Shown piece by piece: positions 28,210-31,102 of a stretch of DNA of 64,000 bases (position 1 is the stretch's first letter; each line of letters starts with the position of its first letter). A program made the translations under genes and the position numbers. Where the stretch lies: assembly GCA_963772735.1 (NCBI GenBank), contig CAVYYO010000001.1, positions 223,581 through 287,580 of the forward strand, written 5' to 3'. The notes under the pieces were generated by a model. It was not told the DNA's origin. It worked only from the letters and a program-made list of their open reading frames with translations, and did no database searches. This DNA is from an uncultured cyanobacterium. Its GTDB lineage: Bacteria > Cyanobacteriota > Cyanobacteriia > PCC-6307 > Cyanobiaceae.

Positions 28210-28213
28210 GGGT

Positions 28214-28222
28214 TCCTCACAC
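28214..28222 (-). promoter_or_regulatory. GTGTGAGGA, putative Yfr1 sRNA target site of porin 2
   Basis: Same 9-mer as upstream of porin 1, 4 nt before the ATG. Confidence 0.75.
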
Positions 28223-28457
28223 GGATGTGGCGCAATGCGCCAAACGCACAATCCCCCAAAGGCCCCTCCCCCACCAGCGACCATGTGCCAGAACACACAA
28301 CGTCCGGCAGTGGGGGCTTCCGAGGGGACTGCCCTGAGCCCCCTGCTGATCGAGGAACTGGGGATCGGGCAGCCCTTCGGCCCTTGGCGTGGGGCGCGTC
28401 GTGCTGAATCGCCATGGATCGAAGAAGGAGCCCTAACAGGAGGCCCGAATGAACGAT

Positions 28458-28509
28458 GCCCTCGAAACCGTGTGTCCCAGGTTCCCCTGGTCCTCACGGT
28501 TTCGAGGGC
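28458..28509. repeat. Perfect 15-bp inverted repeat with an internal 5-bp stem
   Basis: GCCCTCGAAACCGTG (28458-28472) / CACGGTTTCGAGGGC (28495-28509), enclosing CCAGG-TTCC-CCTGG. Confidence 0.9.
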
Positions 28510-28564
28510 TCTCGCCGGGTCCGCTCTGGCGCGGAACCGATGGATCAGGAGTCAGCAGCCGTGA

Positions 28565-28618
28565 TCAGCCGGCATTCTCCGCGATCAGCAGACCCTGGGT
28601 GGGACAACTTGGGTTCAT
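28565..28618 (-). CDS. Putative 17-aa small ORF upstream of porin 2 (MNPSCPTQGLLIAENAG)
   Basis: Shine-Dalgarno AGGAGGTG, with AGGAGG 5 nt before the ATG; no homology evidence. Confidence 0.35.
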   Translation of the reverse strand: MNPSCPTQGLLIAENAG

Positions 28619-28981
28619 GGACACCTCCTCCTGTGGGGTTGGATGCCAGCCGGCGACGCCTGCGGCCATCACGGTGAACGCGTCGGTGAAAGGGAGATAC
28701 CGGACAGCGAACGACCTGCCGGTGAAACCGACAGACATCGCATCCAGGGACCTCCACTTCAACCGATTCAGCCGTTTCCGTCGATCACCACGTCACTGCT
28801 GACGGAACCTGCCAATCTTAACGAGCACGGGCCGGATCTGCAGCGGCCTGTCCCCCATGGGGAGCGTCGATTGAGCGGGCATCAGGACCTGGGATGGGAT
28901 GGCGCGGAGCGACGGACCGGCGAGCGCCCAAGGCCTCGGTTCAGACTGGGGACGCCTCGCCCCAAGCCCCTGACCTCCCGC

Positions 28982-31102
28982 GTGCCGCCTCCCTGGCTCT
29001 GGTGGCTGGCTCTGGGCCTGATCTGGGCCGCCGCCACCGGCGCTGACCGGCTCTGGATCCATCTCGACCTGCGCCTGCCGGCCTGGGACGAGGCCAACTA
29101 CCTGAACAGCGCCGTGGACCACGGCCGCGCCCTCGGCCTGATGCCGGCTGGCGCCTGGCGGGGCTGGCAGGCCCTGCTGGATCTTTCCCCGAAGATTCCG
29201 CCCCTGGGAAGCCTGGTGGGCGGCACGGTGATCGCCGTGGCCGGCGACGACCCGGACGCGGCGCTGTGGGTCCAGCCCGTCTGGAACGCCCTGCTGCTGG
29301 TGGTGGTGGCCGGCTGGGGAAGGCAGCTGGTGAGCCCGGCCTTCGGACTGCTGGCGGCCGCGCTCACCGCCACCGCTCCCGCCCTGGTGACGCTGCGGGT
29401 GGATTACAGCCTTGATCTGCCGTTGACCGCCATGGCCCTGCTGGCCCTCTGGCTGCTGGGGCGCTGGCAGGCACCGGAACCGCTGGGCGGGCGCTGGGGA
29501 CAGGCGATCGCCGCCGCACTGGCCATCGGCGCCGCCGTGCTGGTGAAACAGAGTGCCCTTCTGGTGCTCGTTCCCCCCTGCCTCTGGGCCGCCGGCACCG
29601 GACTGGTCCGCCGCGGCCGGCGGTTGCAGGTGCTGATGGCCCTGGGGATCGCGGTCGGGATCGCCCTCCCCTGGCTGCGCCACAACTGGATCATGACCCT
29701 GGGAGGCACCAACCGGGCGGTGATCGAGTCGGCCGCCCTGGAGGGGGATCCGGACCCCTTCAGCCTGGCGAGCCTCTTCTGGTATCCGCCCCTGCTGCCG
29801 GCCCAGCTGGGGGTGCCCATGGTCGTGGTGGGGCTGGCTGGCGCGGTCCTGGCCTTGTGGCGGCGGCGGCGCTGCCTCCTTCCCCTGGCCCCCCTGGCGC
29901 CCGGGTGGGGCTGGCTGATCGGTTGCGCCCTGGGCGGCTGGCTGTTCACCACCTTGAGCCCCAACAAGGATCCCCGCTACATCGCGCCGGTGCTGCCACT
30001 GCTGGTGCTGCTGCTCAGCCTGGGCTGGTGGGCGCTCGTGCTGTGGCTGCGCGCCCGCTGGGGACGCACCGCCGCCCTTTCCGCGCTGGGGCTGGGCCTG
30101 ATCGGAAGCGCCGGGAGCACCGCCCTGCAGCGGGCGGAGGCGCTGGAGCGCGAACCGCCTTTCCCGATGGCGGCCCTCATGGGCGACCTGCGCCAAAGGG
30201 TGGGCACGGCCCCCACCACGGTGGTCGTGATCCCCACCACCGGCGATGTCAACCAGAACAACGTCACGGTGTTCGGCCGCACCGGCGGAGGCGAGATCGT
30301 GGGCCGGGAGATCGGCAAGCGCGAAGAGGAACATCCCCTGGTGCTGGGAAAGGCCGAATGGCTGCTGCTGGCCACGGGAGATCAGGGCACCCATCGGGAG
30401 GTGTCCCGCCAGCTGAGCCGCGCGGTGCGCAGCGACGGCCGCTTCGCCCTGGTGCGCAGCTGGCCCTGGAGCCAGGGCCGGCAGATCGAGCTCTGGCAGC
30501 GGCGCGACGATGGCTCCCCCCCGGCCCGGTTCGACCAGCACTTCATCCGCCTGGCCCGGGGCATGGAGCAGGGGCCTGCAGGCCTTGCCGCCGTATTCGC
30601 CGCCATCGGACCGGAACACCAGCTCGACGGCCACTTCCTGTATCAGCAGCGGGTGGCCCGCTGGGCGGAGGCGCAGCTGCGGATCGACCCTGACGATCGC
30701 GACGCCCTCTGGAGTCTGGGATTGCTGGGGGTGCTGCAGAACCGTCCCCATGCGGCGGACCGGTGGTTCAGCCGCCTGCAAACCCTGGAACCCGCCAACC
30801 CCTGGCCGCTGGCCTATCGCGCCGTGGTGCTGCTGGCCGCCTGGGAACCCTGGCAGGCCCATGCCCTGCTCGAGAAGGCGACTCCCGCGATGGGGCAACA
30901 GCCGGTGATCCTGGGTCTCAAGGACCTCTCCGGTCTGCTCTCGGGGCGGCCACAGAGCCTGGGATCCCTGCGGCAGAGCCTGCCAGCGGCCATCGAGACC
31001 GTGAAGACCGGCCTGGAGCAGCAGCCTGGATCCGCTCCTGACGCCGCTCCTCAGGACGCTGGCAACGCTTCCGGGCAGCAGATCAACGGGACGCGTCCAT
31101 AA
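28982..31102 (+). CDS. GT-C membrane glycosyltransferase (GT39/ArnT-like) with C-terminal TPR-like region; start uncertain
   Basis: Multiple TM segments, PAWDEANYL, PKIPPLG, NKDPRYIAP, C-terminal helical repeats. Confidence 0.8.
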   Translation: MPPPWLWWLALGLIWAAATGADRLWIHLDLRLPAWDEANYLNSAVDHGRALGLMPAGAWRGWQALLDLSPKIPPLGSLVGGTVIAVAGDDPDAALWVQPVWNALLLVVVAGWGRQLVSPAFGLLAAALTATAPALVTLRVDYSLDLPLTAMALLALWLLGRWQAPEPLGGRWGQAIAAALAIGAAVLVKQSALLVLVPPCLWAAGTGLVRRGRRLQVLMALGIAVGIALPWLRHNWIMTLGGTNRAVIESAALEGDPDPFSLASLFWYPPLLPAQLGVPMVVVGLAGAVLALWRRRRCLLPLAPLAPGWGWLIGCALGGWLFTTLSPNKDPRYIAPVLPLLVLLLSLGWWALVLWLRARWGRTAALSALGLGLIGSAGSTALQRAEALEREPPFPMAALMGDLRQRVGTAPTTVVVIPTTGDVNQNNVTVFGRTGGGEIVGREIGKREEEHPLVLGKAEWLLLATGDQGTHREVSRQLSRAVRSDGRFALVRSWPWSQGRQIELWQRRDDGSPPARFDQHFIRLARGMEQGPAGLAAVFAAIGPEHQLDGHFLYQQRVARWAEAQLRIDPDDRDALWSLGLLGVLQNRPHAADRWFSRLQTLEPANPWPLAYRAVVLLAAWEPWQAHALLEKATPAMGQQPVILGLKDLSGLLSGRPQSLGSLRQSLPAAIETVKTGLEQQPGSAPDAAPQDAGNASGQQINGTRP

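Follow-up and report, generated by a model that had tools for sequence, protein, structure and literature searches.

Organization of the intergenic region

The window (the whole stretch of 64,000 nucleotides analyzed here, from an uncultured member of the Cyanobiaceae) contains a divergent intergenic region of 660–770 bp, located between the porin 2 gene on the minus strand and a PMT_2 gene on the plus strand. The frame of the latter is open from 28643 to 31102, and its likely start is the TTG at 28871 or the GTG at 28982. The original prediction described this region as a gene-free gap of about 600 bp; with the flanking gene on the plus strand the gap is larger, and it holds a small transcription unit. 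In fact, the gap is not a long porin leader: a distinct small gene, for a structured RNA with a 17-codon ORF (here referred to as “the element”), takes up most of it. The other approximately 230 nt consist of a non-conserved spacer followed by the promoter and short 5' UTR that belong to the porin itself (Table 1).

Several further reading frames were considered and discarded. The minus-strand ORF of 701 aa lying upstream is the shadow of the plus-strand PMT_2 gene, and the ORFs of 65, 69, 70 and 117 aa in the gap, on either strand, have neither a Pfam match nor a conserved frame. As for the spacer, the closest relative that shares this gene order (L179) lacks about 120 nt of it. The second long imperfect hairpin that had been predicted is present there (about 28380–28320), but it folds weakly (z = −2.0) and sits in this non-conserved sequence.

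Table 1. Features of the intergenic region and of the flanking plus-strand gene (window coordinates)
Feature	Position	Strand	Remarks
GT39/PMT_2 membrane glycosyltransferase gene, divergent	28871..31102	+	Pfam PMT_2 4.9e-10, PMT 2.2e-5
Small transcription unit (the element)	28826-28445	-	Own conserved promoter, P1, SD, ORF, helix H and terminator hairpin
-10 box TAAGAT of the element	28815..28820	-	TAnnnT at the same offset in homologs
Inferred start of transcription (block A, first G)	28808	-	Homologous base is the mapped start in CC9605; RNA contig of run X33 ends at 28794
Block A, 5' strand of stem P1	28785..28808	-	P1a GUCAGC 28803-28798; P1b GUGACG 28796-28791
Variable P2 extension with three TTCACCG repeats	28663..28784	-	Sequence not conserved
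3' strand of P1	28641..28662	-	CGUCGC 28658-28653; GCUGGC 28650-28645
SD GGAGGAGGUG	28622..28631	-	Core GGAGGTG near-invariant
17-codon ORF MNPSCPTQGLLIAENAG*	28565..28618	-	Constant length; start and stop codons conserved as such
Helix H 5' strands, inside the ORF	28570..28595	-	GGGUCUGC 28595-28588; GCGGA 28582-28578; GCCG 28573-28570
Helix H 3' strands	28517..28539	-	CGGU, UCCGC, loop GCCAGA, GCGGACCC; alternative: local hairpin P4
Predicted terminator hairpin (28509-28458) and tail AUCGUUCAUUCGG	28445..28509	-	Stem base GCCCCC/GGGGGC conserved
Lineage-specific spacer, contains the second imperfect hairpin	28300..28444	-	No match in relatives
TGTG-N8-CACA palindrome, candidate site for a CRP-family regulator	28284..28299	-	In 11 porin upstream regions, several genera
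Porin promoter-proximal region and short 5' UTR	28210..28258	-	Aligned block in porin upstream regions

Promoter, structured domains and predicted terminator of the element

The element is about 360 nt long here and about 230–260 nt in most relatives. The sigma-70-type -10 box is conserved: in about 30 homologs of the genus and in low-GC genera, a TAnnnT hexamer with varying flanks lies 6–10 nt ahead of block A. Stem P1 comprises 12 pairs that are 95% paired over 38 distinct sequence pairs. Its covariation amounts to 68 double-change cells, compared with 22.6 in shuffles, and none of 1000 shuffles scored as high. The P2 extension between its strands forms a long hairpin in this genome; in the homologs its length varies between about 20 and about 120 nt. 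The Shine-Dalgarno (SD) sequence that follows is unpaired and very strong. Its core is unchanged in 71 of the 72 aligned homologs, which cover 40+ genera (the remaining one has GGAGATG), and its spacing to the ORF is canonical and fixed.

The 15-bp hairpin at the end of the element is predicted to be an intrinsic terminator that carries a U tail in relatives, where the tail reads CAUCGUUUU or U7–9. The upper part of the stem varies among homologs in sequence and length, and the arms stay complementary (judged by eye, without pair counts). The tail in this genome, AUCGUUCAUUC, fails the terminator consensus scan. This agrees with the earlier remark that no U-tailed terminator precedes the porin, since no canonical one is scored here, but relatives do have U tails. 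Because the U tail is degenerate in this genus, some read-through from the element towards the porin may occur.

The features named in the original prediction differ in their conservation. The TAAGAT hexamer, the micro-ORF with its strong SD (GGAGGAGGTG) and the perfect 15-bp hairpin (−47.7 kcal/mol, z = −9.4) were all recovered at their positions and are conserved family-wide. The three TTCACCG repeats (28672, 28684 and 28720) do form a true local cluster, with 3 copies in 55 nt, but they fall in the variable insert; the motif occurs 28 times in the window against 5.6 expected, mainly within coding sequence. The buried GTGAGGA, described as a partial Yfr1-type site, exists at 28497–28491 but belongs to the stem of this genome and is not conserved. 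The proposed bistability of that stem (the CGAG/CTCG alternative) is likewise not conserved, as it depends on the stem sequence of this genome, which varies among homologs.

The 17-codon ORF and helix H

We distinguished 55 nucleotide versions of the ORF, each of 17 codons, with the starts ATG (40) or GTG (15) and the stops TGA (51), TAA (3) or TAG (1). The length is exactly 17 codons in 84 of the 88 element copies examined, despite frequent indels directly upstream and downstream. The peptide consensus is M-x-x-S-C-x-x-Q-G-L-L-I-A-E-N-A-G, with neither a signal sequence nor a transmembrane segment. The N-terminal half varies almost without restriction. Entropy by codon position is 0.99/1.10/0.94 in codons 2–8 and 0.35/0.49/0.34 in codons 9–17, so that no third-position periodicity is seen in either part. 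Codons 9–16 are fixed at the nucleotide level, low-GC genomes included. The retention of GC-ending codons (CTG, GCG, ATC and GCC) in low-GC genomes, together with the lack of a third-position excess, points to conservation acting on nucleotides. Translation of the ORF is probable, given the near-invariant SD, the fixed length and the exchange of start and stop codons solely within their own kind, whereas the lack of third-position periodicity suggests that the peptide itself would be non-functional.

The openness of the frame is weak evidence for the ORF, because frame +2 is also largely stop-free (47 of 55 versions). No longer in-frame ORF is conserved upstream, where the open stretch varies from 4 to more than 86 codons among homologs. 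The ORF is frameshifted in two divergent copies from incomplete small MAGs (L213 and L217), and one genome has an additional, degenerate copy that keeps the H and terminator sequences but neither the SD nor the ORF; going by these copies, the role may be one of the RNA only.

Helix H joins the 3' half of the ORF to sequence about 50 nt downstream. It comprises 17 pairs that are 98% paired, with changes on both sides in 6 pairs (13 cells), and none of 500 shuffles scored as high. Changes in the conserved half of the ORF are compensated in this helix. The local alternative to H scores lower (92.7% paired, 45 of 500 shuffles as high). As the two regions are quasi-repeats, most sequences are able to form either H or the local hairpins. 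Two other pairings were rejected: that of UCAGCAG in the 5' block with CUGCUGA in the ORF, because low-GC homologs have GGCAAUA with the ORF sequence unchanged, and a stop-codon hairpin GCCG/CGGC, which is paired in 79.6% only. An unbiased scan for further covarying column pairs gave no coherent helix besides H.

Distribution and transcription of the element

By BLAST, the conserved block was found in 30 of the 36 other genomes of the genus. Moreover, a covariance model (R1) detected the element in 244 of 401 genomes of the family, representing 43 of 64 genera, and in 243 of these 244 genomes it is single-copy. The range covers Cyanobium, marine Synechococcus and genomes resembling low-light Prochlorococcus, both marine and freshwater. 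The model gave no copies in about 270 genomes of other cyanobacterial families, and none were found in phages or plasmids. Among the matches listed in a loose pattern scan of genome contigs, most are chance hits in high-GC genomes, and five cyanobacterial records are informative. The genes that persist beside the element, namely the second psbD copy and those for porins of the outer membrane and GT-C glycosyltransferases of the envelope, hint at a link to envelope or photosystem II regulation in the most abundant marine phototrophs. Strict co-occurrence with DUF2079 was not found: the gene cluster occurs without the element, and the reverse also occurs.

The core of the element is present in RNA runs from at least 9 studies and is abundant in metatranscriptomes. 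Metatranscriptome contigs mostly end inside the element, at the hairpin, and none of those matching this window enter 28210–28440; these Logan contigs are unstranded, and some may derive from DNA. Three of the contigs that end within the element measure 300 nt (run X33, 28495–28794), 176 nt (run X28) and 151 nt (run X25, 100% identity), and one contig of 1,238 nt (run X20), from a relative, extends past both ends of the element into that genome's own flanks.

The homolog in Synechococcus CC9605 is Syn_n076, listed as “hypothetical protein” in the supplementary tables of Hou et al. (2016, Sci Rep 6:35470, PMC5069720), with the RefSeq record WP_041435226.1. Its transcription start as mapped in situ, gTSS-2179994, coincides with the first base of block A (PMC5069720 supplement), with an mdRNA-seq read count similar to those of the rpoB, rplI and tig starts (PMC5069720). 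Syn_n076 is the same element: block A, the 3' strand of P1, GGAGGAGGTGTCC and the ORF can all be read in the sequence printed for it (ATG ATT TCC AGT TGT TTG ACC CAG GGT CTG CTG ATC GCG GAG AAC GCC GGC TGA). The table gives a 51-aa frame read from the transcription start, and that longer frame is not conserved. The RNA structure, the 17-codon ORF and the family-wide range are not described for Syn_n076, and we found no mention of it in any main text. This single supplementary-table line is the only earlier record that we found; the lists for WH7803 (Gierga 2012) or for MED4/MIT9313 (Voigt 2014) may also name the element. Considering conservation and transcription together, the element is almost certainly an independent conserved unit.

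Comparison with known RNA families

The original prediction recognized no known RNA family, and the searches bear this out, as cmscan against Rfam 15 produced no match to the element. At the gathering threshold, the scan of the window returned only a tRNA elsewhere in it. At E ≤ 10, the scan of the region gave only chance miRNA and snoRNA matches on hairpins, and eight distant homologs scanned at E ≤ 0.1 gave nothing on the element. We found neither an Rfam family nor a functional study of it.

Dual-function sRNAs (SgrS/SgrT, RNAIII/hld, SR1/SR1P and Spot 42/SpfP) resemble the element in being stand-alone units of a few hundred nt from promoter to terminator, in which a good SD precedes a very short ORF and the RNA structure is conserved. 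The independence of the unit is seen in the conserved -10 box, the CC9605 start, the terminator and the confinement of most RNA contigs. However, the coding and pairing modules of dual-function sRNAs are usually separate, whereas the ORF of the element is one strand of a covarying helix and lacks protein-type codon periodicity. When the high-GC genome of the organism itself was searched for targets by short matches, the result was noise only.

The downstream-peptide/glutamine-II riboswitch (RF01704) and Yfr6-type 5' UTRs are likewise picocyanobacterial structured RNAs placed directly before a very short ORF. Nevertheless, neither RF01704 nor a glnA RNA matched at E ≤ 10 in the region or at E ≤ 0.1 in the eight distant homologs, and the 5' domain of the element is a single long irregular stem, whereas RF01704 is a two-stem pseudoknot. 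Identity with Yfr6 was rejected on its 33-aa ORF and its 5' UTR type. Yfr103 shares with the element its occurrence in marine Synechococcus and low-light Prochlorococcus, its absence from high-light clades, a similar size class and abundance in metatranscriptomes. Identity was rejected here on copy number (seven paralogs of 290–328 nt in CC9605), Yfr103 being set apart by its description, and it is listed as an entry separate from Syn_n076 in PMC5069720. A type I toxin-antitoxin system was also rejected, as the 17-aa peptide has no transmembrane segment and a variable N-terminal half, and no conserved antisense promoter was seen.

Proposed function and alternative explanations

Of the three options in the original prediction, the long leader is not supported, and the sRNA or riboregulator locus agrees with a conserved, structured and transcribed element. 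Were the whole gap to act as leader or attenuator of the porin, read-through into porin 2 would depend on a leader peptide and on alternative hairpins. The layout of a short ORF followed by hairpins suits such a leader, as do the degenerate U tail in this genus, where no canonical terminator is scored, and the porin on the same strand here. This resembles leader-peptide attenuators and arrest-peptide sensors (trpL, TnaC and ErmCL), in which translation of a short ORF would remodel downstream pairing and a conserved ORF end beside the stop codon is followed by a terminator hairpin. Unlike those systems, the element mostly has no regulated gene downstream on the same strand: a porin takes this position in 13 of the 81 homologous loci, the other loci with an identified downstream gene have convergent GT-C genes, and 37 of the 81 have no recognized gene within the flank of about 1.5 kb. 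Nor does the 17-codon consensus contain a repeated run of sensing codons, and no conserved antiterminator pairing exists, as the alternative pairings H and P4 do not involve the terminator stem. The element has its own conserved promoter and terminator, and part of the spacer is dispensed with in the nearest relative. The porins that do follow keep their own palindrome, promoter-proximal block and short UTR, and in other genomes this block lies 8.6 kb away from the element. In this genome the porin 5' UTR, which is probably short and could be targeted by Yfr1, contains a hairpin (GGCGCAUUGCGCC at 28241–28229, GUGUGAGGA at 28222–28214) over the ribosome-binding site, and the depth of the porin RNA contig (run X20) begins at about 28241–28258, while contigs of the element stop at its hairpin. 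The porin start thus appears to lie near the ATG, which had been named as an outcome against the leader; two further such outcomes did not come about, since transcripts cover the region and the main stem shows both conservation and covariation. We therefore consider a porin leader very improbable.

Two further explanations accept the element as a gene of its own. It could be an ordinary small-protein gene, with a functional 17-aa peptide (a regulatory micro-protein or signaling peptide) and helices that only stabilize the mRNA, or else a purely non-coding sRNA that acts in trans or binds a protein, its SD-like sequence and AUG being RNA motifs and its frame incidental. The strong SD, the constant length and the exchange of start and stop codons only for other starts and stops are expected of the former, and so is the conservation of the C-terminal GLLIAENA at the amino-acid level across genera; the hypothetical-protein entry Syn_n076 (WP_041435226.1, PMC5069720) also speaks for it. 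On the other hand, a functional peptide fits poorly with the lack of excess third-position variation, the GC-ending codons kept in low-GC genomes, the compensation of changes by helix H, and a variable N-terminal half without a signal sequence or transmembrane segment, and we regard it as unlikely. The nucleotide-level constraint and the covarying helices, by contrast, are what a non-coding RNA would have, and the degenerate paralog, the two frameshifted copies and the abundance of the RNA in metatranscriptomes are consistent with it. But the first base of the start varies between A and G only (40 to 15), stops vary only among the three stop codons, the 17 codons persist in spite of the flanking indels, and the SD spacing is fixed, so that a frame arising incidentally seems quite improbable.

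In our view, the best explanation, and one with a reasonable likelihood of being right, is that the element is an independent single-copy small gene for a translation-coupled riboregulator or a dual-function sRNA. Starting from its observed anatomy, conservation, covariation and transcription, we envisage that the selected feature would be the act of translating the ORF and not the peptide. To reach the stop codon, a ribosome must melt helix H, and the freed 3' strands of H could then refold into the local hairpin P4, so that the RNA would alternate between two states, closed when untranslated and open when translated. That this coupling of translation and structure is the function of the element is a tentative proposal. 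The fullest version, a family-wide RNA switch gated by translation, in which the ORF of a highly expressed RNA of about 250 nt exists only for the ribosome to unzip a conserved helix, is rather doubtful. If it is true, the translational status of the cell would be reported by how the RNA is folded, and thereby by how stable it is or how it acts on other molecules.

Significance and annotation

A large part of primary production in aquatic habitats is due to Synechococcus, Cyanobium and low-light Prochlorococcus, which possess few protein regulators. As a highly expressed RNA that is present in a single copy and whose conservation extends from freshwater Cyanobium to genomes resembling low-light Prochlorococcus, the element is a strong candidate for a core regulator. 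Its architecture, with a strong SD and a nucleotide-constrained ORF inside a covarying helix, has no close well-described precedent among the cases compared. The alignment and the covariance model could seed an Rfam family. With regard to annotation, the over-extended hypothetical-protein calls at the element locus are corrected, and the porin genes here are seen to have short leaders of their own.

Organization of the gap

The gap upstream of porin 2 holds a small minus-strand transcription unit (28826-28445, hereafter the element), which is almost certainly an independent conserved unit. Domain searches placed the gene on the far side on the plus strand (PMT_2, PMT), and a long minus-strand ORF there had no domain matches; porin 2 and this gene thus diverge, with 660-770 bp of intergenic DNA between them. 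The original prediction had recognized a large gene gap but put it at about 600 bp. BLAST of the gap against relatives showed that conservation is uneven along its length. The TAAGAT hexamer, three TTCACCG repeats, micro-ORF with a strong SD, perfect 15-bp stem and GTGAGGA inside that stem, all named in the prediction, were found; its second hairpin is present but weaker (z = -2.0). Consensus scans of this genome gave no canonical promoter and, in line with the predicted lack of a U-tailed terminator, no canonical terminator. Rfam 15 had no match for the element here or in eight distant homologs, so the view that it belongs to no known family held.

Features of the gap and its flanks (window positions)
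Feature	Position	Strand	Remarks
PMT_2/PMT gene	ORF 28643-31102; likely start TTG 28871 or GTG 28982	plus	domain matches
Second conserved block	28826-28768		BLAST against relatives
TAAGAT	28820-28815	minus
Putative transcription start	G28808	minus	by homology; seven bases 3' of last base of TAAGAT
Block A	28785-28808	minus	5' strand of stem P1
P1 apical extension	28663-28784	minus
Extended frame	28565-28762	minus	65 aa
Conserved block	28666-28441		~90% identity in many species of the genus (BLAST)
17-codon frame	28618-28565	minus	behind GGAGGAGGTG
15-bp stem	28509-28458	minus	-47.7 kcal/mol, z = -9.4
GTGAGGA	28497-28491	minus	in the stem
RNA contig, run X33	exactly 28495-28794		300 nt; ends inside unit
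RNA contig, run X28	28499-28674		176 nt; ends inside unit
RNA contig, run X25	28509-28659		151 nt, zero differences; ends inside unit
Unmatched stretch	28441-28308		no match among relatives (BLAST)
Spacer	28444-28300		holds second hairpin; ~120 nt missing in nearest relative with same gene order
Porin-proximal region	28307-28210		matches porin upstream regions, in other genomes 8.6 kb from element (BLAST)
TGTG-N8-CACA palindrome	28299-28284	minus	~80 nt 5' of porin start codons, conserved in 11 loci
Porin 5' UTR hairpin GGCGCAUUGCGCC	28241-28229	minus	conserved across genera
GUGUGAGGA over ribosome-binding site	28222-28214	minus	conserved across genera
Porin 2 (SLH + OprB domains)	start ATG 28209	minus	domain search

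Anatomy and transcription of the element

In an alignment of about 30 homologs, a common TAnnnT hexamer is followed 6-10 nt 3' by block A (GGTTCCGTCAGCAGTGACGTGG), an insert whose length differs widely (~20 nt in distant relatives, ~120 nt here, where it holds the TTCACCG repeats), CCGMAGGCGTCGCCGGCTGGCA, a C-rich linker, GGAGGAGGTGTCC-ATG and a reading frame of exactly 17 codons. Then come a variable stretch, CGGTTCCGC-GCCAGA-GCGGACCC-GGCGAGAG, and a GC-rich hairpin with the conserved base GCCCCC/GGGGGC, which leads into CATCGTTTT or a run of T. The upper stem of this hairpin varies in sequence between species and its arms remain complementary. From the GC-rich hairpin and T tail across homologs, the small unit probably ends in the 15-bp hairpin as its terminator; in this genus its U tail has decayed to AUCGUUCAUUC.

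The region is not silent, as the element core is present in metatranscriptomes from at least nine studies. Three RNA contigs end inside the unit, and no RNA contig matching the window enters 28210-28440. The contigs are strandless and a 1,238-nt contig from a relative (run X20) overruns both element ends, so that contig evidence alone is supportive and not proof. Stronger evidence is a mapped start in Synechococcus CC9605, where a supplementary table lists Syn_n076, a 'hypothetical protein' at 2179839-2179994 on the minus strand, with the primary 5' end gTSS-2179994 and about as many reads as the starts of rpoB, rplI and tig (Hou et al. 2016, PMC5069720). The printed Syn_n076 sequence is this element and opens with the first nucleotide of block A.

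Distribution

A covariance model of the element core (R1, 160 positions) found one copy in 244 of 401 family genomes, representing 43 of 64 genera and including low-GC genomes of 1.3-2.0 Mb. The element was not found in genera of 1.6-1.8 Mb resembling high-light Prochlorococcus, in any of about 270 genomes of other cyanobacterial families, or in phage and plasmid collections. One marine genome carries a second, degenerate minus-strand copy (L223:552-710, G097:C1:2023851-2024009; 52 bits) 5 kb from the intact one. It retains CAGGGUCUUCUGAUCGCGGA, the GGUUCCGCG region and the terminator, lacks the SD and has a broken frame (ATG ATT TAG).

RNA helices

Covariation, proposed earlier as a check, is seen in two helices, strongly in P1. 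P1 pairs GUCAGC-A-GUGACG with CGUCGC-CG-GCUGGC around the variable insert and is 95% paired across 38 distinct sequence pairs; double-change cells numbered 68 against 22.6 in shuffles, and none of 1000 shuffles was as high. In low-GC genera the entire stem is rewritten (GGCAAU-AG-CGAAG with CUUCG-UGA-GUUGUC). The apical extension of P1 has expanded to 100-120 nt in this genus, with a species-specific pair of short pyrimidine-rich repeats in it (TTCACCG here, CTTCCGCC in close relatives).

Helix H is a long-range pairing proposed by RNAalifold on the core, in which the 3' half of the ORF (GGGUCUGC, GCGGA, GCCG) pairs with downstream CGGU-UCCGC...GCGGACCC. Across 72 distinct homologs aligned with MAFFT it is 98% paired, with both sides changed in six pairs (13 cells) and none of 500 shuffles as high. 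Because the two regions are quasi-repeats, three local hairpins could form instead; these are 92.7% paired, have both sides changed in three pairs and are matched by 45 of 500 shuffles. Helix H is thus the better supported.

The 17-codon reading frame

The frame is kept in 84 of 88 element copies, in 55 distinct nucleotide versions that start with ATG (40) or GTG (15) and stop with TGA (51), TAA (3) or TAG (1). The SD core GGAGGTG is identical in 71 of 72 aligned homologs, and indels are frequent just outside the frame on both sides and absent within it. These are signatures of a translated frame, and comparison of the sequences suggests that it is probably translated. Two divergent copies in incomplete small low-GC MAGs (L213 of G073, L217 of G121) have frameshifting single-base deletions giving 10 and 18 codons, which could be true ORF decay or assembly error.

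Entropy by codon position is 0.99/1.10/0.94 for codons 2-8 and 0.35/0.49/0.34 for codons 9-17. Variation is not concentrated at third positions, and low-GC genomes too retain GGT CTG CTG ATC GCG GAG AAY GCC; the targets of selection are therefore the nucleotides (helix H) and the presence of the frame rather than a protein sequence. Longer callable frames (65 aa in the window, 51 aa printed for Syn_n076, WP_041435226.1) cross P1 and are not conserved, the in-frame open stretch 5' of the start codon being as short as 4 codons in some homologs and longer than 86 in others. They are therefore probably annotation over-calls.

Neighbouring genes and interpretation

We tallied gene context at 81 loci with roughly 1.5-kb flanks. 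At 44 of them the second psbD copy precedes the element on its strand, and at 13 a porin follows it on that strand; the remaining loci with a recognized downstream gene have a convergent GT-C-type membrane gene (DUF2079, PMT_2, LPG_synthase_TM), and 37 have no recognized gene in the flank. The element therefore adjoins envelope and photosystem II genes and is the leader of none. Of the leader, riboregulator or sRNA locus originally predicted, a riboregulator or sRNA locus stood and a long porin leader was not supported; an attenuator of the porin, which the gene order in the window would allow, is highly improbable.

A plain micro-protein gene would account for the signatures of translation but not for selection on nucleotides, and is unlikely. 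A purely non-coding sRNA would fit the covarying helices and leave the fixed frame and its SD aside; we consider it less likely still. Our own, tentative reading is that coupling of translation and structure is the point of the design. Ribosomes would load at the exposed strong SD, read 17 codons and unwind helix H; its released 3' strands could refold into a local hairpin, P4, and the RNA would alternate between closed and open forms depending on its translation. The switch might act on how stable the RNA itself is, or by exposing the CU-rich GAUCA loop or the linker to partners.

The transcript has been recorded once, as the supplementary entry with an over-extended ORF (PMC5069720); no main-text description was found in the literature searched, which covered part of that on picocyanobacterial transcriptomes. 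We place the element with the small-ORF-bearing sRNAs; here the ORF sits inside a covarying helix.

The upstream psbD copy is monocistronic, has its own terminator and lies directly 5' of the element (e.g. L004-L012, L017, L028-L032, L191, L208). The duplication of psbD is the probable reason why many contigs break about 400 nt 5' of the element. The element and DUF2079 do not strictly co-occur. Small Prochlorococcus-like genomes carry three tandem DUF2079 (GT-C-like) genes (G122:C1:1014233-1019300, G094:C1:1057246-1062046, G116:C2:216173-221247), with the element between the first and second in G122 and G116 and none in the same cluster of G094.

Upstream region of the porin

The last ~100 nt upstream of the porin align in eleven loci from several genera, which share the TGTG-N8-CACA palindrome, a promoter-proximal block, the hairpin GGCGCAUUGCGCC and GUGUGAGGA. 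The palindrome resembles a CRP-family site (TGTGA-N6-TCACA), which makes it a candidate for regulator binding at som-type porins. A porin start close to the ATG had been named as speaking against a long leader, and porin RNA depth indeed begins at about 28241-28258. The conserved GUGUGAGGA is complementary to the core of Yfr1.
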